Numbered from the stretch's first letter, positions 15,660 to 28,066 are shown. The stretch is 64,000 nt of DNA from an uncultured Candidatus Saccharibacteria bacterium (GCA_964590205.1 CAZPVO010000001.1:175873-239872); one strand, 5' to 3'. Notes: a model not told the origin generated them from the sequence alone. Made by a program: numbers and translations.

Positions 15660-16184
15660 ATGTCCCAAGATGTTGGTTATGGTGATGATGCGCCAGATGT
15701 AGTTAACGTAATTATTGAGATTCAAAAAGGTTCTCGAAATAAAATCGAGAAAGATGAAGCAACCGGACGACTGTTTTTGGACCGTGTGAACGGGACACTG
15801 CTTGGATATCCAGCTGATTACGGCTACGTGCCCAATACTCTTTGTGATGACGGCGATCCGCTGGACGCACTGGTGATTATTGACGAATCTTTGCCGCACG
15901 GTGTGGGAGTGCCTGTTCGAGCAGTTGGCGTATTGTATTTTGAAGACGACGGTGACATGGACGAAAAACTCATTTGTGTGCCAGCCAAAGACATCAGTAA
16001 AGATCACATTAAACACCTAGATGATCTTGGAGAAGCCTTCAAGAAAAACATCGAACATTTCTACAAGCACTACAAAGATTGGAAAAAAGATTGGAAAGGC
16101 GTGAGTGCCGTACTCAAAGGCTGGGGCGGTCCAGACGAAGCCAAAAAAGTCATCCAAGAATCAATTGATCGCGCCAAGAAATAG
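15660..16184 (+). CDS. ppa: Inorganic pyrophosphatase (family I)
   Basis: IIEIQKGSRNKIE, YPADYGYVP, DGDPLDALV motifs. Confidence 0.9.
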   Translation: MSQDVGYGDDAPDVVNVIIEIQKGSRNKIEKDEATGRLFLDRVNGTLLGYPADYGYVPNTLCDDGDPLDALVIIDESLPHGVGVPVRAVGVLYFEDDGDMDEKLICVPAKDISKDHIKHLDDLGEAFKKNIEHFYKHYKDWKKDWKGVSAVLKGWGGPDEAKKVIQESIDRAKK

Positions 16185-16186
16185 CT

Positions 16187-16609
16187 ATGAAAAACGTTGT
16201 CGTAGCTAAAGCTTTTGTTATTAACAATGAGGGTAAAATCCTTGCTGTAAGGCGAAGTAAAACAGATGAGCGGCGACCACTACAGTGGGATACTCCCGGA
16301 GGTTGGCTGGAACAGGGCGAAGATATTACCGAAGCAACGGCCCGAGAAGTCGAAGAAGAAGCTGGCTTAAAAGTTAACCCCCATGATTTGACGCTTGTTT
16401 TTACAAAGACTGGGATTAGAAAGCCAAAAAATGAGTCAATGAACGTTAACTGGCTCTTTTTTGTAGTTAGAACAAACGAAACAGAAGTGAAGCTGAGCTA
16501 TGAACATGATAAAGCTCAGTGGATGACTTTAGATGAAGCACTCAAAGAGTTTGAGTATGATTTACACCTAGAGGCAATTCAACACCTCAAAGACAACGAT
16601 CTTATCTAA
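16187..16609 (+). CDS. NUDIX hydrolase
   Basis: Nudix box GGWLEQGEDITEATAREVEEEAG. Confidence 0.85.
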   Translation: MKNVVVAKAFVINNEGKILAVRRSKTDERRPLQWDTPGGWLEQGEDITEATAREVEEEAGLKVNPHDLTLVFTKTGIRKPKNESMNVNWLFFVVRTNETEVKLSYEHDKAQWMTLDEALKEFEYDLHLEAIQHLKDNDLI

Positions 16610-16682: not shown

Positions 16683-17717
16683 ATGAAAACTAGGGTGGCA
16701 ATTAACGGATTTGGGCGTATCGGGCGAAATGCTTTTAAAATAGCTTTCGATCGTGCCGATATTGATGTCGTTGCAATTAACGACTTAACTGATACAAAAA
16801 CACTCGCCTATCTTTTAAAACACGATTCTAATTATGGTCTCTACGATCGCAAGGTTGAGTCTGATGATACGCATATTATCGTTGATGGTGACGCCATAAA
16901 AGTTACGGCTGAAAAAGATCCAGCTAAGCTGCCGTGGAAGGAAAATGATATCGATGTGGTTATTGAGTCCACTGGACGATTCACGAAAATCGAAGATGCC
17001 AAGCTGCATGTAACTGCGGGTGCGAAACGTGTTGTACTTTCAGGCCCAACAAAAAGTGACGGCATTGACACTGTTGTGCTCGGTGCAAATGATGATGATT
17101 TAGAAAAATCCACCGATATTATTAGCAATGCTAGTTGTACGACAAACTCGTTAGGTGCTGTGATGGCTGTCTTGGAAGCGAACTTTGGCGTCGAGAAGTC
17201 TCTCCTCACAACCGTACATAGTTATACGGCCAGTCAAATGTTGCAAGATGCTCCAGCTAAGGATGTACGAGAAGGTCGTAATGCGGCTGAAAACATTGTG
17301 CCAACAACAACCGGTGCGGCGATTGCTGTAACACTGACACTTCCTCATCTGAAGGGTAAATTTGACGGTTTGAGTATTCGGGTCCCAACCCCAGTTGTTT
17401 CACTCAGTGATGTCACGGCTCTACTTAAAAAGGACGTTACCGTTGAAGAAATCAACGAAGCGTTCAAAAAAGCAGCGGCTGAGCCATTTTATCAAGGTAT
17501 TTTAGATGTTAGTGACGAGCCGCTCGTCAGTAGTGACTATATTGGAAACAGTTTTTCGGGTACAGTTGATCTACTTTTAACAAAAGTTGTTGGCGGGAAT
17601 TTGGTGAAAGTGATGGTTTGGTATGACAACGAATGGGGTTATAGCAACCGCTTGGTTGAAGAAGTGGCTGATGTCGGAAAATTACTTCACGAAAAGGAAG
17701 AGCACGCACACGAATAG
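16683..17717 (+). CDS. gap: Type I glyceraldehyde-3-phosphate dehydrogenase
   Basis: INGFGRIGR, the ASCTTN active site, WYDNEWGYS. Confidence 0.92.
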   Translation: MKTRVAINGFGRIGRNAFKIAFDRADIDVVAINDLTDTKTLAYLLKHDSNYGLYDRKVESDDTHIIVDGDAIKVTAEKDPAKLPWKENDIDVVIESTGRFTKIEDAKLHVTAGAKRVVLSGPTKSDGIDTVVLGANDDDLEKSTDIISNASCTTNSLGAVMAVLEANFGVEKSLLTTVHSYTASQMLQDAPAKDVREGRNAAENIVPTTTGAAIAVTLTLPHLKGKFDGLSIRVPTPVVSLSDVTALLKKDVTVEEINEAFKKAAAEPFYQGILDVSDEPLVSSDYIGNSFSGTVDLLLTKVVGGNLVKVMVWYDNEWGYSNRLVEEVADVGKLLHEKEEHAHE

Positions 17718-17719
17718 CT

Positions 17720-18160
17720 ATGAAAATTTTTCTTGGCGCTGATCATAACGGCTATGAATTCAAGGAAAAACTTGAAGGCGATTTAAACTGGCAAGGTCAT
17801 GAAGTTGTCGACATGGGCGATATTGATCTTAATAAAGATGATGATTTTCCGGAATATGCTGCTAAAGTCGCAACAGCTGTACTGGGTGAAAAAGATAGTG
17901 TTGGCATTTTACTGTGTGGCAGTGGCCAAGGTGTTTGCATGGCAGCAAATCGCTACAAAGGCATTCGTGCAAGCTTGGTATGGGATCAAGATGAGGCAAA
18001 GGCTTCACGAAATGACGATGATGCTAATGTAATCTGTCTGCCAGCCAAAAAACTAACTTTTGAGCAAGTAAAAGAATTAGTTGATACATGGCTTTCTACA
18101 CCATTTGCGGGAGCCGCTCGGTTCCAGCGGCGTATAAAACAACTCGACGAGTTGAACTGA
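17720..18160 (+). CDS. rpiB: Ribose-5-phosphate isomerase B
   Basis: GADHNGYEFK, LLCGSGQGVCMAANR. Confidence 0.88.
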   Translation: MKIFLGADHNGYEFKEKLEGDLNWQGHEVVDMGDIDLNKDDDFPEYAAKVATAVLGEKDSVGILLCGSGQGVCMAANRYKGIRASLVWDQDEAKASRNDDDANVICLPAKKLTFEQVKELVDTWLSTPFAGAARFQRRIKQLDELN

Positions 18161-18789
18161 TGGCTGTAATTTGTCCGACGGTAACACCGCTTAGCATCAA
18201 TGATTATCATCAGCAGCTGGAGCGTATCACAAAATTTACCAAGCGAATTCATATCGATTGTATGGATGGCAAGTTTGCGCCAACTAAATCACCGTCACTC
18301 AAACACTTATCATGGCCAAAAAATATCGACGTCGATATTCACTTGATGTATGAACATCCCGAAGATGAAATTACACAGCTGATACAGCTTAAACCCAAAT
18401 TAGTAATACTGCACGCTGAAGCTGGCGGAAATTTTGTAACCATGGCTAATGATTTGCATGAGGCAAACATTCGAGTCGGCGTCGCGTTGTTACCTAAAAC
18501 TCCAGTGGACGTTATAAAGCCGGCACTTGAGATTACTGACTATGTGTTGATTTTTAGCGGCGATTTAGGCCATTTTGGTGGTTCTCCAAATCTAGTGCTG
18601 CTTGATAAAGTTAAAAAGGCTAAGCAGATGAAGCCTGAAGTTGAAATTGGCTGGGATGGCGGAATTGGCGATACGGTAGTGAAGCCACTGGTCGAAGCTG
18701 GTGTTGATGTACTCAATGTCGGCGGGTATATTCAGAAGGCCGAAAATCCAGCCGAGCGTTACGATATCCTGAAAAATCTGCTAAACTAA
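18160..18789 (+). CDS. rpe: Ribulose-phosphate 3-epimerase-family protein
   Basis: HIDCMDGKFAP, DIHLM, IGWDGGI. The start is refined to ATG 18160, a 1-nt overlap with the rpiB stop. Confidence 0.7.
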   Translation: MAVICPTVTPLSINDYHQQLERITKFTKRIHIDCMDGKFAPTKSPSLKHLSWPKNIDVDIHLMYEHPEDEITQLIQLKPKLVILHAEAGGNFVTMANDLHEANIRVGVALLPKTPVDVIKPALEITDYVLIFSGDLGHFGGSPNLVLLDKVKKAKQMKPEVEIGWDGGIGDTVVKPLVEAGVDVLNVGGYIQKAENPAERYDILKNLLN

Positions 18790-18813
18790 AAGCAAAAGCG
18801 GGAATGTGCGCAT

Positions 18814-19674
18814 ATGAACAAAAAAACGTACACAATTGAGGAATTAGAGCTCAAGGCCAACAGCATTCGCCAGGATATTATTAAAATGCTGGTGCATGCC
18901 GGTAGTGGCCATAGTGCGGGCCCACTAGGTTTAGCCGATATTTTTACGGCGCTTTATTTTGACATTTTAAAACACGATCCAAGCAAACCAGATTGGGATC
19001 AGCGCGATATTCTGCTCTTAAGTAATGGTCACTGCGTCCCGGTTCGCTATGCGACAATGGCCGAAGCTGGCTATTTTGATAAAAAAGAACTAATGACGCT
19101 TCGCAAGTTTGGCTCAAGACTACAAGGTCACCCCGAGCGACTTAAACTGCCAGGCCTAGAAAACACCAGTGGCCCGCTGGGCTGCGGCTTAAGTCAGGCA
19201 TGTGGAATGGCGCTGGCGCTACGCATGAACAAAGAACAGCATCGCTGGGTGTACGTAGTGATGGGTGATGGCGAGCTCGACGAAGGTAATGTCTGGGAAG
19301 CGGCGATGCTGGCATCCAAATACAAGCTCAACAATATAATCGGTATCATCGACCGCAACAATATTCAAATTGATGGCCCAACTGAGTCGGTTATGCCTCT
19401 CGAAGACCTCAAAGAAAAGTGGGAATCATTCGGCTTTCACGTTATTGAAATTGACGGTAATAACATCGAGGCTGTGATTGATGCCTGCGCAATGGGGCGT
19501 GCCGTGGTTGAAAAGCCAGTCATGATTATTGCCCACACCGTGCCAGGCAAAGGCGTTGATTTTATGGAATACGATTTTCATTGGCATGGAGTCCCACCAA
19601 ACGTTGAGCAGGCCAAAGAAGCGCTGCATGAAATCCGAACTTTGCGTGGCAAAATCAGGAGCGAACATGAGTGA
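18814..19674 (+). CDS. Transketolase, N-terminal (TPP-binding) subunit
   Basis: GHSAGPLG, GDGELDEGNVWEA and IDRNNIQIDG motifs. Confidence 0.88.
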   Translation: MNKKTYTIEELELKANSIRQDIIKMLVHAGSGHSAGPLGLADIFTALYFDILKHDPSKPDWDQRDILLLSNGHCVPVRYATMAEAGYFDKKELMTLRKFGSRLQGHPERLKLPGLENTSGPLGCGLSQACGMALALRMNKEQHRWVYVVMGDGELDEGNVWEAAMLASKYKLNNIIGIIDRNNIQIDGPTESVMPLEDLKEKWESFGFHVIEIDGNNIEAVIDACAMGRAVVEKPVMIIAHTVPGKGVDFMEYDFHWHGVPPNVEQAKEALHEIRTLRGKIRSEHE

Positions 19675-20644
19675 TGTTCATTTAGTAGGTGATATTACAG
19701 ATCCTGACGTTAAGGTTGAGCCGATCAGAGTTGGTTTTGGTAAAGGTTTACTAGAAGCTGGCCGGCGGGACGAAAATGTAGTCGGAGCTTGCGCTGATTT
19801 AACTGGTTCAACCAAAATGGACGGTTTTGCTGAAGCTTTTCCTGAGCGGTTCATTGAAATTGGTGTAGCCGAGCAAAATTTAGTAACGGTGGGATCAGGT
19901 TTGGCCGCCATGGGTAAAATTCCGTTTGTCAGCAGCTATGCGGCATTCAGCCCAGGTCGTAACTGGGAGCAAATTCGCACGACCATTTGTTTAAACGACC
20001 GACCAGTCAAAATTATTGGCTCTCACGCTGGCCTGTACACTGGTACAGATGGTGCAACACATCAAATGTTGGAGGATCTCGCACTTATGCGTGTGCTGCC
20101 AAATATGGTTGTGCTGGCACCGTGCGACAGTTTAGAGGCCGAAAAAGCCACGATTGCTATGGCGACAGACAAACGGCCAAATTACATGCGTGTCACTCGT
20201 GAAGGCACACCGGTATTCACTACGCACGATACACCTTTTGAAATTGGCAAAGCTCAAATTTTTGATCAAGGTGTTGATGTGACAATCGTAGCAACGGGTA
20301 CGATGACACATCCGGCTCTTGTGGCTGCAAAGCACTTATATAAAGAAGGTATCGATGCTGAAGTAGTCCACTGTGCGACAATCAAACCTCTTGATGGAGT
20401 GACAATTCTAAAAAGTGTGAGAAAGACTGGTGCGGTAGTAACTGCTGAAGAGCATCAAATTAATGGTGGTCTTGGCAGCGCCGTGGCGGAACTGGTGAGC
20501 GAAAATCATCCTGTGCCGCTCCGGCGGGTTGGCGTTAAGGATCACTTTGGTGAATCAGGCGAGCCAAAAGAACTGCTGGAGCACTTCGGATTAACGTACA
20601 AACACATTATGGCTGCCGCTCACGAGGTTTGTGGGGTAAAATAG
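19667..20644 (+). CDS. Transketolase, C-terminal (pyrimidine-binding) subunit
   Basis: ERFIEIGVAEQNLV, GATHQMLEDLALMR. The start is refined to ATG 19667, an 8-nt overlap with the N-terminal subunit. Confidence 0.88.
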   Translation: MSDVHLVGDITDPDVKVEPIRVGFGKGLLEAGRRDENVVGACADLTGSTKMDGFAEAFPERFIEIGVAEQNLVTVGSGLAAMGKIPFVSSYAAFSPGRNWEQIRTTICLNDRPVKIIGSHAGLYTGTDGATHQMLEDLALMRVLPNMVVLAPCDSLEAEKATIAMATDKRPNYMRVTREGTPVFTTHDTPFEIGKAQIFDQGVDVTIVATGTMTHPALVAAKHLYKEGIDAEVVHCATIKPLDGVTILKSVRKTGAVVTAEEHQINGGLGSAVAELVSENHPVPLRRVGVKDHFGESGEPKELLEHFGLTYKHIMAAAHEVCGVK

Positions 20645-20649
20645 TACTT

Positions 20650-21561
20650 ATGCCGCTTACGCTTAGAGAAATGCGCAACAATTGCCTAAAGGCGCGAGAG
20701 CTGATGGAACGTTCACGTCGTGAGCATTTTGCTGTTGGAGCGTTCAACTTAGACAATCAGGAAACTTTAATTGCTGTGTGCCGGGCCGCTAAAGCAAAAA
20801 GCGCACCTGTAATGGTTGAAGTGAGCAAGGGCGAAGTCGACGCTATGGGGCTCGACAATCTCCGCGATATGGTTGATAACTATAAAGCCGAATATGGTCT
20901 GGAGATGTTCATTAACCTCGATCACAGCCCAAGCGTTGAAGACGCGCTTGATGGTATTGAAGCCGGTTTTGAATTTATACACATTGATATTAGCCAAGCC
21001 AATCATGATGCGAGTGATGAGCAAATCATAAAAGCTACTCATCAAGTAGTTGATTACGCAAAATTAACTGGTGCACTTGTGGAGAGTGAACCGCACTATT
21101 TTGGTGGCGGAAGCAATGTTTTTACTAAGAAATTTGATTACGACGAAATAAAGAAAACCTTCAGCACACCGGAAGGTGCCAAAGCGTTCGTAAAAGCGAC
21201 CGGTATTGATACTTATGCGGCGGCTATCGGAAATCTGCACGGACACTACCCCGTACCAAAACGGCTAGACATTGATTTGCTCAAAAAAATTCGAGCAGCG
21301 ATCGACTGCAATATTAGTTTGCATGGTGGCAGTGACACGCCAGGTCACTATTTTGAAGAAGCGGTAAAAATTGGTGTCAGTAAGATCAACATTAATTCTG
21401 ATATGCGACTGGCTTACCGAAAAACTCTTGAAAAAGTTCTGGCCGAAAACAAGACCGAGTATGCCGTCGTAAAAATCATGGGCAAAGTGATTAAAGAAGT
21501 GCAAAGTGTCGTTGAAAGTAAAATTGATGTCTTCAACGCCACTGGCAAAGCTAAGACGTAG
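20650..21561 (+). CDS. Class II fructose/tagatose-bisphosphate aldolase
   Basis: AVGAFNLDN, NLDHS, HIDIS, GNLHG, LHGGSDTP, NINSD motifs. The start is refined to ATG 20650. Confidence 0.85.
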   Translation: MPLTLREMRNNCLKARELMERSRREHFAVGAFNLDNQETLIAVCRAAKAKSAPVMVEVSKGEVDAMGLDNLRDMVDNYKAEYGLEMFINLDHSPSVEDALDGIEAGFEFIHIDISQANHDASDEQIIKATHQVVDYAKLTGALVESEPHYFGGGSNVFTKKFDYDEIKKTFSTPEGAKAFVKATGIDTYAAAIGNLHGHYPVPKRLDIDLLKKIRAAIDCNISLHGGSDTPGHYFEEAVKIGVSKININSDMRLAYRKTLEKVLAENKTEYAVVKIMGKVIKEVQSVVESKIDVFNATGKAKT

Positions 21562-21564
21562 ATT

Positions 21565-22533
21565 ATGAAAGAAACCGTAAAGATTATTAGCATTGGTGCG
21601 GCAGTCCAAGACGTTTTTTTGCTCGGCAAACTTTTTAGACCGCATAAAGAAGATGACGGCGATATGGTTGAGGAATTTGAACTCGGCAGCAAAAACGATG
21701 TCGAAGACGTGGTTTTTAGCACCGGTGGCGGTGGAACAAACGCTGCTGTAACTTTCGCTCGCCAGGGTTTACACAGCATGTGCTTTGGGCACATTGGTGA
21801 TGATCTTGCCGGGCAAGCTGTCATGGATGATCTTCATAAAGAAGGTGTTGACACCTCGCTTATGAAGATTGAGAAAAACATCGGCACTGGCTATTCAACA
21901 TTACTACTCGCGCCTAATGGGGAACGCACAATACTAACTTACCGCGGTGCATCCGAAACATTTACTCTGCACGAAAGCGATTTCCATGATATGAAAGCCG
22001 ACTGGTTGTATGTCTCCTCACTTGGCGGAAATATCGAGGCACTTAAAACAATCGTAGCGTATGCCAAGGCTCACAATATAAAAATTGCTGCCAATCCTGG
22101 AAAAGGCGAGCTAGAGCAAAAGGCCGAAATACACAAACTTATTCCGCAATTTAGTATTTTGAGTCTAAATAAAGAGGAGTTGCAAATGATTTTTCCAGGG
22201 GAGACTTTGGAAGAATTAGTAACAACAGCTGCCAAGCAAATTCCATGTGTGATTGGTACTGATGGTCCAAAAGGTGCCGTGGCTATTTACGAGGGTAAAT
22301 TATACAAAGCCGGCATGTACGAAGATGTAAAGGTTGTTGATCGAACTGGTGCCGGGGATGCATTTAGTAGCGGCTTTGTAGCTGGTGCGGTCAAGGGTGG
22401 TAGCCCAGAACATGCTATTACGCTCGCTAGTGCGAATTCTACAAGCGTGGTCACCAAAGTGGGCGCCAAGCCAGGAATTCTAGGCTCTAGCGCTAAGCTG
22501 CATGCGATGCCAATTCAGGCACAGGATTTGTAA
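21565..22533 (+). CDS. PfkB-family carbohydrate kinase
   Basis: GGGGTNAA N-terminal motif and TGAGDAFSSGFV C-terminal signature. It directly follows the aldolase gene. Confidence 0.8.
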   Translation: MKETVKIISIGAAVQDVFLLGKLFRPHKEDDGDMVEEFELGSKNDVEDVVFSTGGGGTNAAVTFARQGLHSMCFGHIGDDLAGQAVMDDLHKEGVDTSLMKIEKNIGTGYSTLLLAPNGERTILTYRGASETFTLHESDFHDMKADWLYVSSLGGNIEALKTIVAYAKAHNIKIAANPGKGELEQKAEIHKLIPQFSILSLNKEELQMIFPGETLEELVTTAAKQIPCVIGTDGPKGAVAIYEGKLYKAGMYEDVKVVDRTGAGDAFSSGFVAGAVKGGSPEHAITLASANSTSVVTKVGAKPGILGSSAKLHAMPIQAQDL

Positions 22534-23347
22534 GGGGTATTCCTGCCAGGTTCAGCGCTGTGCGCCCGGTGCTGGACAATAGTTTTGTGACGTAATTTAC
22601 TTCACTTGGATCTTTGCCGAGCATTTCAAGATAAGCGTTCTCATTACTGATCATGATATCTGCGGCGCTATATACCGTTAGACCGATGCCAATAGCTTCA
22701 AGAGGTTTGCGTAGTACTGGCACTCGATCAAGAATTCCGGTTGCTTCAGCTGTTTGATGGGCATCCATGACGACTGTTTTAATTTGACTGATGGGCACTG
22801 CACTGCCGGCTTTTGTAACACCAAGCTGACGGTACGTTGAGCGTACTGAGCTCACCCAAAAATTCCGCGTTACATTAAGACTAGTGTAAAGCCATGATAA
22901 ATCACCGCCGACGCTTGCGCCAAGCTGGTCTGCAATCTGAGCGTACTTATCACACTCTTGATCTAGCGTACTGCCGTCAGTTTCACGTAGTGTTTGCATA
23001 ATAGCCCCTGCTCTTGTTCGAGTACTACCTCGCTGAGCGCAATTTTGTGCTATTTGCAGCATCATTTTGTTGGCACTAAAAATCACGGGCTTAGCTGTTG
23101 CAAATTCTTTGTCATGTTCCGCAACAAAGCCATCATGCCCATCTATAATCATCTTAGCTCCACGTACTAAGCCTGGAACCAGACCTTTTTTACCACGTGC
23201 TGCGGTATAAAAAAGATACGGGGCAATCAAAATACGGCCAGCACTTTCAGCATTGGCAATTTCACGACCATGTTCTTGATAAATTTGGCGGACTGATTCA
23301 GGAGTTATGGCCTGAAAAGCCCCGTTCTTAACATCTCGGATACTCAT
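22493..23347 (-). CDS. Hypothetical soluble protein (284 aa), no recognised domain
   Basis: Long ORF. The start is refined to MSIRD (ATG at 23347). Its 3' end overlaps pfkB by 41 nt in convergent orientation. Confidence 0.5.
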   Translation of the reverse strand: MSIRDVKNGAFQAITPESVRQIYQEHGREIANAESAGRILIAPYLFYTAARGKKGLVPGLVRGAKMIIDGHDGFVAEHDKEFATAKPVIFSANKMMLQIAQNCAQRGSTRTRAGAIMQTLRETDGSTLDQECDKYAQIADQLGASVGGDLSWLYTSLNVTRNFWVSSVRSTYRQLGVTKAGSAVPISQIKTVVMDAHQTAEATGILDRVPVLRKPLEAIGIGLTVYSAADIMISNENAYLEMLGKDPSEVNYVTKLLSSTGRTALNLAGIPLTNPVPELASHAA

Positions 23348-23431
23348 TAAGCTATTTTTAGCATAAAAGCAATTAAAAAGCAAAAACTGACTTTACGGAA
23401 CTATTCCGCTCATGGTAATCTGTAAATAACT

Positions 23432-24661
23432 ATGAGCAAAATGCTGTCAGAACTTTTGGGCGCTACTGAACCTATGTTTAGTTTGGCCCTGCAGCAGCTC
23501 GAAAAAGCCAGCGGCAGCACCGGTGTTGATTTGCGTTTAACATCGGAGATCATTGGTAAAGTTAATCTTAAAACGCGCGAACTTGGGCTGGATCCAGAAG
23601 ATACAACTGGCCGCGAACTTTATTTTGCCCTTCTTAATAAAGTTGAGCGTGACGACGAATACTTAGTGAAATTAATGGGAGGTACGGATCCAAACGACGC
23701 TGCTGCTCTCATGCCACTGATGAAAAAAATGTGGGATGATTATAAAACCCCAAAGGCAGCGTGGGTCCTTAAAAAGAGTGTCGCCAAACGCCTACTGCAC
23801 AGTATGCCACCTAAAAACATCATGAAGCATTTACATTACCGCTCGGTGGATTCAATGCTCAAAAATGAAAACCTGGCCGAAATTTACGGGGCGCTCCGAT
23901 TTGCTGAAGATCCAAAATGGCTTAATGAATTCGACAGTAGCTACAAAAAACTCAAGCCGAGTGATTTTGAAACCCGCAACATCGAAATTGTACAGATGTC
24001 GGCTGACCGGTGGGGCGACATTGCCGCGCCGTTTATTCATAAAAAGAAGCACAATATCACACACCTCAAAGAACTTGGCGTTATTTTGATGTTACCAATT
24101 TCTGGGCAATTGCGTGGTATTGCCATTTTTGCATTACCGTTATTATTTCATTACTTGAACGAAATTCGTCTGTACTCAGCTTTCTTTAAATTGCAACAGG
24201 TTAAACCTGACTTTGGTGAAATTTTAGTAACAACGCTTATTGCTGATCCACCGCAGGCTGCCGTTATGTCAGGTCAGAATATTCACTGGCGTGTGATTCA
24301 ACGTTACTTCGGTAAACTTGATAATGAATATCACCCGGAAATTTTTGAACCACATGTCCAGCCCGAGGATTTGCATTGGCGACGGGCCGAAGAAATGCTG
24401 TACGAACTTGATCCTGAGCTAGGCTTTTGGAAAGATCTTGATTACGTGGCTGCAATGCACGCCGGTCGGCCAATTACGTTTAATGTTTTGGATATAGCTG
24501 CAAGTTATGTCAACAAACTTCCGTATAAAGACAGAGCGATTTATCATTTTCGCGAGAGTCTGTGGACCGAAATTTTTGTGCGCTACATGGGCGAAAAAAC
24601 TCTTGAGCAGCAGGTGCTTAAGCAGCTCAACAATAATATGATTGAGCCTGAAAACCTATGA
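23432..24661 (+). CDS. Hypothetical protein (409 aa), no recognised domain
   Basis: Long ORF divergent from 23347. ATGA overlap with the next gene. Confidence 0.5.
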   Translation: MSKMLSELLGATEPMFSLALQQLEKASGSTGVDLRLTSEIIGKVNLKTRELGLDPEDTTGRELYFALLNKVERDDEYLVKLMGGTDPNDAAALMPLMKKMWDDYKTPKAAWVLKKSVAKRLLHSMPPKNIMKHLHYRSVDSMLKNENLAEIYGALRFAEDPKWLNEFDSSYKKLKPSDFETRNIEIVQMSADRWGDIAAPFIHKKKHNITHLKELGVILMLPISGQLRGIAIFALPLLFHYLNEIRLYSAFFKLQQVKPDFGEILVTTLIADPPQAAVMSGQNIHWRVIQRYFGKLDNEYHPEIFEPHVQPEDLHWRRAEEMLYELDPELGFWKDLDYVAAMHAGRPITFNVLDIAASYVNKLPYKDRAIYHFRESLWTEIFVRYMGEKTLEQQVLKQLNNNMIEPENL

Positions 24662-25278
24662 ACCCTTTACGAAGACATAAAATGCGATATTCAATTTGTT
24701 TGTCGGGCGCAGCGTCCGGTCATACGGTTGAACCAGCTCGCAAGATGGCTGAAGAAGTTGGCCGGGCGATTGCCAAGGCTGGACATATTATTACAACTGG
24801 TGCGACTATCGGGCTGCCATACTATGCAGCTAAAGCCGCAAAGGAAGCTGGTGGTATGAGTATTGGTTTTTCCCCAGCAGCCAGTATGCGTGAACACTTA
24901 TATAAGTACCGTTTGCCGCTCGATGTGTATGATTTTGTAAACTTTACAGGCATGCACTACGTTGGGCGCGATATTCACTTGGTACAGTCCAGCGATGCAA
25001 TTATTACTATTGGCGGACGGTTTGGTAGCTTGCACGAATTTACGACTGCGCTCGAAGCTAAGATGCCTTGCGGGGTACTACTTGGCAGTGGAGGCACGGC
25101 CGATGAAATTCCAGATCTTATGAACCGGCTTGAACCACCTAATCGCGACATGGTGACATTTGACGATGACGCAGGCAAGCTTGTTAAGGAAGTTATTGCC
25201 ATGCTCGATAAAGACTTAGCTGATATTGATCCATCTATCAATCATTCGGCGTGGTTTCACGAGGGCGACAAACACTAG
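24658..25278 (+). CDS. LOG/SLOG-superfamily Rossmann protein (TIGR00725-like)
   Basis: GAASG ... TTGATIGLPYYAAKAAKEAGGMSIGF ... ITIGGRFGSLHEF is collinear with the LOG-family GGxxGxM / PGGxGTxxE motifs. The alternative start is ATG 24682. Confidence 0.6.
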   Translation: MNPLRRHKMRYSICLSGAASGHTVEPARKMAEEVGRAIAKAGHIITTGATIGLPYYAAKAAKEAGGMSIGFSPAASMREHLYKYRLPLDVYDFVNFTGMHYVGRDIHLVQSSDAIITIGGRFGSLHEFTTALEAKMPCGVLLGSGGTADEIPDLMNRLEPPNRDMVTFDDDAGKLVKEVIAMLDKDLADIDPSINHSAWFHEGDKH

Positions 25279-25371: not shown

Positions 25372-25956
25372 ATGAAAAAACTCAACCAACATGGAATAGC
25401 AGGAACAATGGTCGCATTGATCATCGTATTAGTTTTAGCAGTTGGCGGCGTCGGCTACTACGTCTGGCATGCCAAAAAAGCAACTGAGAACACTTTGAAC
25501 AACACTTCTAACAGTATTGGCGAACCAAGTAAGTCAACAAAAAAGACGGCACCTACCTCACAATCGACTGTAACTTCCAAAAAATATCTTGAGATAAAGG
25601 AGCTGGGAATTAAGTTTGAATTAACAGATAGCATTGCTGATGCATATTATTATATTGATCCAAAAGTACCAGATGTTGCAACGTTATCGATTACATCGCT
25701 GAAAGGTACCGATCAATGTGGTGCCGATAAGGTTGGAATCGGACACGTTTCAAAAGGGTTAAAGACTGATAAGTATGGTGAAACGAATGATACATTTGAG
25801 AAGCTTGCTCAAACTGGCGGAAAAGTAATTGGCAACTACGCCTACGTTTACTTTGGTCCACAAGCTGCTTGTAGTGACAATCAGCAAACAGAAGCAAAAG
25901 CATTAGCTACTCAAAAAGAATTTGTGAAGCAGATGTCAACAATTCAGGCACTTTAG
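25372..25956 (+). CDS. Pilin-like N-terminally anchored protein, type A paralog 1
   Basis: MKKLNQHG|IAGTMVALIIVLVLAVGGVGYYVW, then a KYLEIKELGIKF domain with two Cys. Confidence 0.6.
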   Translation: MKKLNQHGIAGTMVALIIVLVLAVGGVGYYVWHAKKATENTLNNTSNSIGEPSKSTKKTAPTSQSTVTSKKYLEIKELGIKFELTDSIADAYYYIDPKVPDVATLSITSLKGTDQCGADKVGIGHVSKGLKTDKYGETNDTFEKLAQTGGKVIGNYAYVYFGPQAACSDNQQTEAKALATQKEFVKQMSTIQAL

Positions 25957-25977
25957 AAAAATAACTTAAGGTCAAAT

Positions 25978-26775
25978 ATGAAAAAACTCAACCAAAAAGG
26001 TTTTACTGCATTCGAAATAATCCTCTTAATTGTTGTGCTATTGCTGATTGCAGGAGCTGGCTACTACGTCTGGAAACTGCGAAGCGCAAACAAACCGGCC
26101 GGTGACACTTCTCCAAGTAAGCCTCACACATCAGAGAAAAAAGAAGAGCCAAGGGCTTACGATGTTTCTGGTCTTGGAGTAAAGCTAAAATATCCCAAAG
26201 ATTGGGGGGAGGCTACTTTAGCAGACGGACCTATTATGTCTCCCGGTACAGGCTCTTACAAACAGCTTACATTTTCTAGTCAAAAAAATATTAATATTAA
26301 CTTTGTTGTCGGGGCTTATAATAGCCCACTTGATGGCTGTGGCCTCGGCACCCCTGAAGAAAATGAGAAGCATGCACTCAATGCTGTAGAAGCATCTGTA
26401 ATAGGATGGGACGCCACCAATGTTAAGAGGTATATGTCAGGCCAAGGGACACCTGCAAAAGTTTATATGTACAGCATTAAGCCTGGAGAGATCGGTGATG
26501 GTTGGGTGAGTGTCTCGACAAGCGATAAAGTACTTGAATATAAAGACATTGATAGTGAATCAAACCGCTGGAAAGCTGACTCTGCGGGGCTTGCTTGCGG
26601 TACTGTTACCCAAGCACAGGCAGATGCGGCAAATGCATATAAGAAGTATGTCCATTATGCGGTAAACGTTTCAAATGATAAGTTTAAAGGTGCTAATGCA
26701 CAATATGATGCAAGAACAAATGATGATTCAGCACTCCGTGCGAAAATAGTAACAGTTCTTAATAGCATCCAATAG
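25978..26775 (+). CDS. Type IV pilin-like protein with canonical prepilin motif, type B paralog 1
   Basis: MKKLNQKG|FTAFEIILLIVVLLLIAG has Gly at -1, Phe at +1 and Glu at +5. The C-terminal domain begins with LKYPKDW. Confidence 0.65.
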   Translation: MKKLNQKGFTAFEIILLIVVLLLIAGAGYYVWKLRSANKPAGDTSPSKPHTSEKKEEPRAYDVSGLGVKLKYPKDWGEATLADGPIMSPGTGSYKQLTFSSQKNININFVVGAYNSPLDGCGLGTPEENEKHALNAVEASVIGWDATNVKRYMSGQGTPAKVYMYSIKPGEIGDGWVSVSTSDKVLEYKDIDSESNRWKADSAGLACGTVTQAQADAANAYKKYVHYAVNVSNDKFKGANAQYDARTNDDSALRAKIVTVLNSIQ

Positions 26776-26782
26776 GAGATAT

Positions 26783-27379
26783 ATGAAAAAACTCAATCAA
26801 ACGGGAATCGCAGGCACACTTGTTGCACTCATAATAGTACTAGTCTTGGCGGTTGGAGGCGTTGGCTACTATGTTTGGCACACCAAGCAGGCTACTGACA
26901 AGACTCTCAACGACACTTCTAATAGTGTCGGCGAACCAACTAACGCAACTTCAAAAAACACTACTACTTCAACGACCACAAAACCAGCCGACAGTATTAA
27001 ATACCTTGCAATAAAGGAGTGGAAGGTAGAGATTACACTTTCCGTTGCGACAAAAGATACACAATATGCTTTTGCGAACGGCAGTAGCTCAACTGTATAT
27101 ATATATTCTAAAACCGTTGCTGATAAGTATGCCGGCTGTCAAGGTGGAGGCTATACGCTTGTTAGAGCTAATGGTAATGATACGATTGGCAATACTACTT
27201 ATGAAGCGGCAGCCAAGGATCCGCAATCAGGTTTTAATAAAGATATAAAGAAGGTAGGCGACTATTATTACAGAAGAGTTAGTCATCAAGTGTACTGTAC
27301 TAGCCAGTCTACAGCAGATGAAAAAGCGGCCTCTGCGCTACTGAGCCCGACTTTCGATACGCTGCAAGTAACTAACTAA
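26783..27379 (+). CDS. Pilin-like N-terminally anchored protein, type A paralog 2
   Basis: MKKLNQTG|IAGTLVALIIVLVLAVGGVGYYVW. Its linker and KYLAIKEWKVE domain parallel the gene at 25372. Confidence 0.6.
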   Translation: MKKLNQTGIAGTLVALIIVLVLAVGGVGYYVWHTKQATDKTLNDTSNSVGEPTNATSKNTTTSTTTKPADSIKYLAIKEWKVEITLSVATKDTQYAFANGSSSTVYIYSKTVADKYAGCQGGGYTLVRANGNDTIGNTTYEAAAKDPQSGFNKDIKKVGDYYYRRVSHQVYCTSQSTADEKAASALLSPTFDTLQVTN

Positions 27380-27391
27380 AAAGGAACAGAT

Positions 27392-28066
27392 ATGAAAAAA
27401 CTCAACCAACAAGGAATCGCCGGCACTCTTGTAGCACTCATCATTGTACTTGTGCTCGCTGTAGGCGGCGTCGGCTACTACGTCTGGAAAATGCGAGGCG
27501 ACAGCAAGCCAGCTGGAGACACGGCGCCTAGTAAGCCACGAACAAGCACAAAGAAAGAGGCTGAAAAGCCAGCCCCAGATCCAACAGCTGATTGGGCGGC
27601 CTATTCGAACAAAGAAGGACAATTTTCGTTCAAATATCCTAAAACATGGGTACAGGCAACTCATCCAGAATTATGTAGCCCGGGTATTGCCCTGTTTGGT
27701 GCAAGTACTAGCTCTGTTGGCGTTTGTGCCTCAGAAAGTTTTGGTCAAATGAGCTTTATTTCACAGGCTGGTGATAAAACAGCCGAAAACCGAGAGACGA
27801 GCACAGATTATCTAGACATTACCTCAGAGACATTTACGATAAATGGAGTAACAGGCACAAAATATAGTGGTACCTATAAAGCCCCTCATGACCACACTGC
27901 ACAGCCCGTACCTGCACCTGGCACGAAATCGATAAATTATGTTATAGCTGCAAATGGGAGAACCTACACGATGTCCTATCAATCTGCTAACGCGACATCA
28001 ACGTACCCAGATGCGCTTAATGACTTCAATACACTCGTAACAAAAACCTTTAAGTTTACTCCTTAA
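27392..28066 (+). CDS. Pilin-like N-terminally anchored protein, type B paralog 2
   Basis: MKKLNQQG|IAGTLVALIIVLVLAVGGVGYYVW. Its KPAGDTAPSKP linker and FKYPKTW domain parallel the gene at 25978. Confidence 0.6.
   Translation: MKKLNQQGIAGTLVALIIVLVLAVGGVGYYVWKMRGDSKPAGDTAPSKPRTSTKKEAEKPAPDPTADWAAYSNKEGQFSFKYPKTWVQATHPELCSPGIALFGASTSSVGVCASESFGQMSFISQAGDKTAENRETSTDYLDITSETFTINGVTGTKYSGTYKAPHDHTAQPVPAPGTKSINYVIAANGRTYTMSYQSANATSTYPDALNDFNTLVTKTFKFTP

Follow-up and report, generated by a model that had tools for sequence, protein, structure and literature searches.

The stretch of DNA analyzed here (64,000 nt from an uncultured Candidatus Saccharibacteria bacterium, CAZPVO010000001.1:175873-239872; referred to as the window, by which all coordinates are given unless a locus is named) encodes a protein of 409 aa, p409, whose gene runs into that of a 206-aa protein of SLOG cluster 4, a member of the LOG superfamily. 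These two genes form a conserved, translationally coupled and vertically inherited pair, which constitutes the last cistrons of a gap-rpiB-rpe-tkt-fba-pfkB operon, and their products are probably linked in function. A preliminary description of the window had grouped the pair with a divergent gene for a 284-aa protein (p284), as one cluster wedged between a glycolysis/pentose-phosphate operon and a pilin-like array; the pair is instead the conserved tail of the sugar-phosphate operon, and the object of interest is the p409-LOG pair, for which the comparative evidence is unusually clean, rather than the three-gene cluster. As a tentative best explanation, we propose a coupled module in which a LOG-type step from nucleotides to ribose-5-phosphate would operate together with a lineage-specific partner. 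The main features, with the source of each assignment, are the following:

23432-24661, plus strand: p409, 409 aa (open reading frame (ORF) list); family found in Saccharibacteria only, predicted to be soluble and of mixed alpha/beta structure
24658-25278, plus strand: SLOG cluster-4 Rossmann protein of the LOG superfamily, resembling the molybdenum cofactor (Moco) carrier protein and TM1055, 206 aa (ORF list, PF18306)
22493-23347, minus strand: p284, 284 aa (ORF list); predicted CDP-alcohol phosphotransferase fold, inserted between pfkB and p409
23348-23431, no strand: divergent spacer of 84 bp (sequence)
16683-22533, plus strand: sugar-phosphate operon upstream of the pair (Pfam assignments, gene order in relatives)

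The ORF list places the three genes where the preliminary description had them, and the 84-bp divergent region, the ATGA coupling and the 41-nt overlap with pfkB that it reported are all present in the sequence: the TGA stop codon of p409 and the ATG start codon of SLOG share the ATGA at 24658-24661 (ctATGAacc), and the 284-aa gene is convergent with pfkB, which ends at 22533. The three ORFs are genuine genes rather than chance ORFs, given that homologues were found for each of them (3195 for p409, SLOG orthologues in nearly every related locus, and 5 for p284).

The order tktN-tktC-fba-pfkB-p409-SLOG-uvrB was observed in nearly all of the 86 loci mapped by tblastn, and it is kept where the identity of p409 drops to 44-49% and even to about 30%. 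In related genomes, p409 and SLOG directly follow pfkB on the same strand, ahead of uvrB and gatCAB. The overlap between the stop of p409 and the start of SLOG measures 4 nt in 28 loci and 1 nt in 14, and in 18 others the SLOG start lies no further than 30 nt away. When metagenome contigs were scanned reciprocally, with SLOG as the anchor, p409 was located upstream in all 74 informative loci (within 200 nt in 71 of them). The pairing of the 409-aa protein with a LOG-like protein is therefore conserved well beyond the source genome. Across 80 species, identity to the window has a median of 65% in the case of p409 and 60% in that of SLOG; the corresponding medians are 67.5% (tktC), 72% (fba), 54.5% (pfkB) and 78.5% (uvrB). 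Since its value matches those of the neighboring glycolytic enzymes, p409 is constrained like a core enzyme.

A related operon has been described in Southlakia epibionticum ML1, in the order gap, rpiB, rpe, tkt, tktC, fba, the carbohydrate kinase SEML1_0547 and the LOG family protein SEML1_0546; the latter (PF18306) lies 9 bp downstream of SEML1_0547 and is followed by small hypothetical genes and uvrB, and no p409 appears at this site in the published gene table (PMC10633639). Given that SLOG directly follows pfkB in this organism without p409, its membership in the operon does not depend on p409. The same genome encodes a second SLOG cluster-4 protein beside a PRTase-like protein (SEML1_0423/0424; PMC10633639), in an organism that has been reported to lack the synthesis of phosphoribosyl pyrophosphate (PRPP); this pairing is a further link of cluster-4 SLOG proteins to nucleotide chemistry.

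The association between p409 and LOG proteins goes beyond inherited gene order, because the LOG partner has been replaced, fused and independently swapped. In the loci that lack a downstream cluster-4 SLOG and have enough flanking sequence, a canonical LOG gene adjoins p409 (PF03641, E values of 1e-28 to 1e-34); the exception is L031, the sole fully flanked locus in which no LOG-family gene was seen beside p409. Relative to p409, the canonical LOG gene has the same direction in L040 and a convergent one in L091; in L055, L064, L065, L070 and L084 it lies immediately upstream in divergent orientation. In L006 no LOG was seen in the available sequence, where the contig ends just past a p284-like gene, and L005, L052 and L066 are cut, with incomplete flanks. 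In one case, on an 808-kb contig (L090), p409 and a canonical LOG are fused in a single protein of 658 aa (P0127) that occupies the same syntenic slot. A neighbor-joining tree of p409 scatters the loci with a canonical LOG over at least four distinct positions among the cluster-4 loci, hence the type of partner has been swapped independently at least four times. In almost every locus a LOG-superfamily gene lies beside p409, be it overlapping, fused, convergent or divergent. This evidence gives us good confidence in a functional link between p409 and LOG.

On the basis of the searches carried out, p409 is the founder of a family restricted to Saccharibacteria and without detectable relatives. 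A word-indexed search retrieved 3195 homologues, the best 120 of which are at least 67% identical to the query, and an exhaustive search grouped the family in 807 clusters at 50% identity, nearly all of about 410 aa. The carriers number at least 502 species-level genomes, and all but one of them bear the name Saccharibacteria, Saccharimonadales or Patescibacteria. The exception (L076, DATLJN010000122.1) is a 7-kb contig in a metagenome-assembled genome of a 'Magnetospirillaceae bacterium' that shows the full Saccharibacteria tkt-fba-pfkB-p409-SLOG synteny, and it is probably a binning contamination. Searches of Pfam, NCBIfam, PADLOC and PHROG with p409 gave no match, single-sequence and profile searches of the PDB sequences returned nothing, and the scan of 37 diverse homologues one by one against Pfam and NCBIfam yielded no recurrent match; weak matches to annexin, RFC_C and similar families were each seen once and were discarded as noise. 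The AlphaFold2 (AF2) model of p409, a confident one (predicted local distance difference test, pLDDT, 84; predicted template modelling score, pTM, 0.81) found no match in the PDB or BFVD with Foldseek, so that the fold is possibly new. The view that the 409-aa protein cannot be placed was thus upheld by both sequence-profile and structural searches, and no profile search assigned it to an ordinary metabolic family.

In an alignment of diverse homologues (29-48% identity), residues L67, P127, E159, W163, D354 and Y385 of p409 are invariant, and the near-invariant set consists mostly of Asp, Glu, Trp, Tyr and Ser. One homologue (P0128, 582 aa, L089:2378-4126) has an N-terminal extension of 167 aa that resembles a truncated second copy, in which the N-terminal helices are joined to the C-terminal p409 segment; this arrangement suggests that the N- and C-terminal parts of p409 form a single structural unit, with the middle part as an inserted domain.

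The conservation of p409 could also be explained if it were an independent housekeeping protein, for instance a non-homologous replacement of a missing sugar-phosphate enzyme (transaldolase, or another step of glycolysis or of the pentose-phosphate pathway), whose adjacency to LOG would be mostly inherited. The gene always comes after pfkB/fba within the sugar-phosphate operon, Asp, Glu, Trp and Tyr make up most of the conserved residues of the protein, as is typical of sugar-handling sites, its conservation is enzyme-like, and no signal of co-evolution with SLOG was detected. Moreover, Saccharibacteria generally lack transaldolase and phosphofructokinase (PFK) (PMC6031116). However, the adjacency to LOG survives inversions, insertions and the replacement of the partner, whereas the pfkB-p409 junction is often broken; one p409::LOG fusion exists, S. 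epibionticum keeps the whole operon without p409 at that place, and the predicted secondary structure of p409 is not that of a TIM barrel. We consider this alternative improbable. In particular, the identification of p409 as the missing transaldolase was rejected, given its secondary structure, its absence from the S. epibionticum operon site and the fact that transaldolase is absent from most Saccharibacteria (PMC6031116).

The 206-aa protein matches PF18306 (SLOG cluster 4, LDcluster4) with an E value of 4e-28 and 98.3 bits (gathering cut-off 26.3), residues 13-149 aligning with positions 4-125 of the 151 in the profile, and its orthologues score alike. Its proposed membership in the SLOG/LOG superfamily was in this way confirmed, and the LOG-like motifs quoted in the preliminary description are present. 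It scores below the cut-offs of TIGR00725, an NCBIfam hypothetical equivalog (64.8 versus 106.9 bits), of the canonical LOG families PF03641 (23.2 versus 27) and TIGR00730 (42.3 versus 96.35), and of the cytokinin-LOG equivalog (25.9 versus 300). The nearest solved chains by sequence are 1rcu (TM1055 of Thermotoga) and 2iz5 (the Moco carrier protein of Chlamydomonas), with canonical LOGs lower in the list; a literature search for LDcluster4 and TIGR00725 found nothing useful. Among 77 SLOG orthologues from related loci, the N-terminal loops SGAA.G and TGAT.GLP, the Arg of GRD, SSDA, and GGRxG[ST]LHEF with its Glu are conserved in at least 90%, and the motif EH..YRLP, also conserved across these proteins, is specific of the subfamily. 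The equivalents of the LOG catalytic Arg and Glu, which the preliminary description had singled out, are therefore intact, and the loop that carries the Glu reads GGRFG[ST]LHE in place of the PGGxGTxxE of LOG, with one extra residue and without the Pro. Judged from its sequence, the 206-aa protein may carry out LOG-type catalysis; the conservation of Arg and Glu does not prove it, because both are also kept in the carrier-type relatives 1rcu and 2iz5.

These likenesses bear on a second alternative, in which SLOG would be a non-catalytic ligand carrier or sensor, as are the Moco carrier protein and YpsA, that binds a nucleotide-derived metabolite (e.g. ADP-ribose, a ribotide or a cofactor), and p409 its effector or client, the activity of which SLOG would control; central carbon metabolism would then be tuned with no supply of ribose-5-phosphate. 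The best solved matches, the failure of the 206-aa protein to reach the LOG family thresholds, and the translational coupling, which suggests a stoichiometric complex, agree with this idea, and the S. epibionticum orthologue is classed as 'MCP/YpsA-related' in ECOD (PMC10633639). On the other hand, in at least four lineages p409 is accompanied by a canonical LOG in which the PGGxGTxxE motif is complete, and in one case the two are fused; these swaps argue that LOG-type chemistry is needed, beyond binding; furthermore, SLOG stays in the S. epibionticum operon without p409, its supposed client. We therefore assign a low probability to a carrier or sensor role.

According to the explanation that we tentatively prefer, the SLOG/LOG partner would be a phosphoribohydrolase of the LOG type or, at minimum, would bind a ligand resembling a nucleoside-5'-phosphate (a ribotide), a role suggested by the fact that a LOG-superfamily gene ends an operon for RpiB, Rpe, transketolase, aldolase and glyceraldehyde-3-phosphate dehydrogenase (GAPDH). 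Ribose-5-phosphate released from scavenged nucleotides would enter the adjacent RpiB/Rpe/transketolase/aldolase route, whose operon also encodes GAPDH. p409 would be a lineage-specific partner present in stoichiometric amounts, since it is translationally coupled to SLOG and has once been fused to LOG; as a guess, it may act as a regulatory, gating or specificity subunit for the LOG activity. Such gating would matter because the uncontrolled destruction of nucleotides would harm a nucleotide auxotroph. The metabolism of Saccharibacteria agrees with this explanation: they synthesize neither PRPP nor, de novo, nucleotides, PFK is missing and transaldolase mostly so, and they rely on nucleic acids from outside, whose building blocks they must import (PMC6031116). 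In TM7x, the pfkB kinase next to the aldolase has been proposed to act as PFK (PMC12815258), and in the window pyrophosphatase and NUDIX genes precede gap. The reality of the genes, their family assignments, the conserved adjacency, the fusion and the lack of mobile or defense signatures are shown by the data; we infer the catalytic activity of SLOG, its physical association with p409 and the direction of the metabolic flow. The specific mechanism, from nucleotides to ribose-5-phosphate with p409 as the regulator, is put forward with considerable doubt. A bolder version, in which p409 is a new fold and family and the obligate partner of LOG, evolved in Saccharibacteria and gating the conversion of host-derived nucleotides to ribose-5-phosphate that is burned for ATP, or alternatively is itself a novel enzyme that fills a missing step of central metabolism, seems unlikely to us.

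Several observations weigh against the preferred explanation. We know of no SLOG cluster-4 protein with a biochemical activity or a defined enzymatic role; the closest solved relatives of the 206-aa protein are the Moco carrier protein and TM1055, whose function is unassigned, and its scores stay under the TIGR00725 and PF03641 cut-offs. The fusion with LOG was seen in one representative protein from one contig. Since class-wide synteny extends to uvrB and gatCAB as well, part of the p409-SLOG adjacency is inherited gene order, and a mirror-tree comparison of p409 with SLOG (32 taxa, with tkt, fba and uvrB as controls), a crude and weak test, gave a partial r of -0.06, i.e. no excess co-evolution. 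The p409 orthologue at L004:4751-5956 (minus strand) has an identity of only 28% to that of the window, as against 65-79% for SLOG, fba, tktN and uvrB on its flanks, which is unusual for a core enzyme. SEML1_0546 was non-essential in all three conditions of a transposon sequencing (Tn-seq) experiment (PMC10633639). In addition, p409 is dispensable in at least one reduced lineage, as S. epibionticum keeps the operon without it at this site; its dispensability speaks for an accessory or regulatory function more than for a catalytic one that the cell cannot do without. The L004 protein has also lost E180 and N351; the rate of evolution is strikingly uneven here, and the same locus holds a p284-like gene.

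The preliminary description had also pointed to poorly understood signaling and conflict operons. SLOG domains act as sensors in Thoeris and other conflict systems, and given that p409 and p284 carry no annotation, the locus could be a SLOG-based operon for nucleotide-signal sensing or defense, with the two proteins as effectors. This suggestion found no support. In PADLOC-DB, p284 and p409 had no match and SLOG had only a sub-threshold one (10.7 bits, E = 0.049); PHROG gave no match for the three proteins, and no copies of p409 were found in phage and plasmid collections, for which reason an origin of p409 in mobile elements was likewise rejected. The two genes are inherited vertically as a single-copy pair, their synteny spans the phylum, and at least 502 species carry them, fixed in their chromosomal position inside a metabolic operon and under purifying selection equal to that on the glycolytic enzymes; p284 is outside the conserved unit. 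The idea of a conflict system is thus largely refuted and highly improbable; the pair looks like housekeeping metabolism.

In contrast to the pair, p284 is rare: only 6 proteins in a collection of 5.8 billion sequences match it, namely itself and 5 homologues at 37-55% identity, and all those that can be placed sit between pfkB and p409. It is absent from most of the related loci, hence the three genes do not make up a single divergent cluster. The minus-strand ORF (22493-23383) can be extended to a TTG at 23383; the ATG at 23347, which yields 284 aa, was taken as the start because the homologues begin with MS[IVAL]RD.K in the alignment. There are 53 invariant columns, including D69xxD72G73 and G125xxxD129xxxD133. 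Within the signature D(x)2DG(x)2AR(x)8G(x)3D(x)3D, the four Asp and two Gly are invariant in p284, the Arg is replaced, and the spacer is of about 50 residues instead of 8; its score against PF01066 (18.9 bits) is below the gathering cut-off of 22. The AF2 model, built from 6 sequences (pLDDT 79), is all-helical, and the first four Foldseek matches are entries 7drj and 7drk of PgsA from Staphylococcus aureus (probability 1.00, target-normalised template modelling score 0.72-0.74, E 0.017-0.07), with the phosphatidylinositol phosphate (PIP) synthases 6h59 and 6wm5 lower in the list. The 284-aa protein, reported earlier as unplaceable, can consequently be assigned: by its model and its Asp/Gly signature, it is a rare and divergent protein of predicted CDP-alcohol phosphotransferase fold, and a separate accessory gene outside the conserved pair.

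No membrane-grade segment was detected in p284, in which no 19-residue Kyte-Doolittle window exceeds 1.6 (maximum 1.35) and the mean hydropathy of the helices ranges from -0.66 to 0.55, with none at the transmembrane level. CDP-alcohol phosphatidyltransferases are integral membrane proteins with about 6 transmembrane helices, and to our knowledge this holds for all the characterized enzymes. p284 would share with them (PF01066; PgsA, PIP synthase) the fold and the invariant DxxDGxxA ... GxxxDxxxD, and differs from them in its score below the Pfam threshold, the replaced Arg, the spacer of about 50 residues and the lack of a transmembrane-grade segment.

Related genes occur at the same junction in either orientation. 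A first group comprises those of L004-L007 and L028, among them a version of 495 aa in L007, whose product (L007:4469-5956) has an additional N-terminal region of about 290 aa without an assignable domain; a second group (L008, L011, L031 and L053) has the canonical DRxDGxxAR. PF01066 scores 34.6 bits in L007, above threshold, and 22.2 bits in L008. The two groups gave a marginal hhalign result (E = 0.023, probability 2%); they are treated as related on account of the shared motif and the PF01066 matches, and not as proven homologues. If real, the products of 22493-23347 (minus strand) in the window and of L007:4469-5956, both without transmembrane-grade segments, would be soluble or peripheral members of the CDP-alcohol phosphotransferase family. 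The pfkB/p409 junction is often broken, by such CDP-alcohol phosphotransferase-like genes in both orientations, by an alpha-amylase-like gene, by secreted proteins, by a 168-aa ORF or by LOG itself. Insertions at this junction include:

22534-23431 of the window
L007:4440-6000
L091:4845-6950
L057:5382-5888
L068:5090-5911
others

In the source genome the spacer between p284 and p409 must hold the promoter or promoters of p409-SLOG, because the antisense p284 gene separates the pair from pfkB; most relatives have just 0-80 nt between pfkB and p409. Scans for promoters, terminators and Rfam elements covered the 84-bp spacer and the whole cluster. They revealed no site with a sigma-70-like consensus in the spacer, counts in the whole cluster that do not exceed the shuffled expectation, and no Rfam match, i.e. 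no RNA element, in either. The genes that surround the pair in the window, all on the plus strand, are:

15660-16609: inorganic pyrophosphatase and NUDIX hydrolase, directly upstream of gap (Pfam)
16683-17717: gap (Pfam)
17720-18160: rpiB (Pfam)
18088-18789: ORF of rpe (Pfam)
18814-19674 and about 19667-20644: split transketolase (Pfam)
20629-21561: class II aldolase (Pfam)
21565-22533: pfkB-family kinase (Pfam)
25372-28066: four tandem pilin-like paralogues (194, 265, 198 and 224 aa), downstream of the SLOG gene and followed by uvrB

The longest ORF of rpe, which starts at 18088, shares 73 nt with the end of rpiB (18160), and the true start is probably further downstream, since the Pfam match begins at residue 28. 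A pyrophosphatase is also found upstream of gap in one distant locus (about 30% p409 identity), and its recurrence, together with the pyrophosphatase/NUDIX genes that precede gap in the window, hints that the hydrolysis of nucleotide-diphosphate sugars or ADP-ribose belongs to the same supra-operon. The tandem paralogues have in common the N-terminus MKKLNQxG[IF]... and, after it, a hydrophobic helix; a prepilin-like G|FTAFE site is present in one of them, and the last gives a weak PsbP_2 match (E = 1e-4). In most related genomes the slot between SLOG and uvrB is empty or holds a single small membrane-anchored protein. In the clade with a divergent upstream LOG, a small membrane-anchored protein without a family assignment recurs between p409 and uvrB and carries the conserved Cys-rich motif SF[QE]EC.AAGNP[VI]MESYPEQC.A.G.TFTNP:

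L006:1122-1880
L055:4354-4695
L064:7240-7482
L066:1433-1723
L070:7051-7674
L084:7289-7540

Several known systems can be compared with the pair. The 206-aa protein can be aligned with TM1055 (1rcu) and with the Moco carrier (2iz5) over about 140 residues, among which are both the GG..G[ST]..E loop and the Arg. From TIGR00725-like proteins it differs by its own EH..YRLP motif, its setting in a sugar-phosphate operon and a coupled partner exclusive to Saccharibacteria. With canonical LOG (Lonely Guy, PF03641/TIGR00730) it shares the superfamily and the equivalent Arg and Glu, having GGRFGSLHE instead of PGGxGTxxE, and canonical LOG takes its place or is fused at some p409 loci. In Escherichia coli, PpnN (YgdH) is an allosterically controlled nucleotide nucleosidase whose LOG core is flanked by regulatory domains. 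The Saccharibacteria module would resemble it in having a LOG-type core and an additional non-catalytic polypeptide, here the separate, coupled p409, or the P0127 fusion. In contrast, p409 matches no Pfam family, those of the PpnN domains included, it is much larger (409 aa), and no homology was detected; any regulation of LOG by p409 is putative. A nucleotide gate with p409 would be the Saccharibacteria counterpart of the AMP-phosphorylase/RuBisCO shunt proposed for other lineages of the candidate phyla radiation (CPR).

For the study of this locus, a false lead has been removed, as it is not one of defense or conflict. Saccharibacteria are obligate epibionts that make neither nucleotides nor PRPP and lack many enzymes of central metabolism; p409 offers a concrete and testable handle on how they convert scavenged material into energy. 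If the pair delivers the ribose of nucleotides to the pentose-phosphate route, the presence of a LOG-family gene in a sugar-phosphate operon would be explained. If true, this would be the first function for SLOG cluster-4 proteins, and would reveal a new regulatory or catalytic fold.

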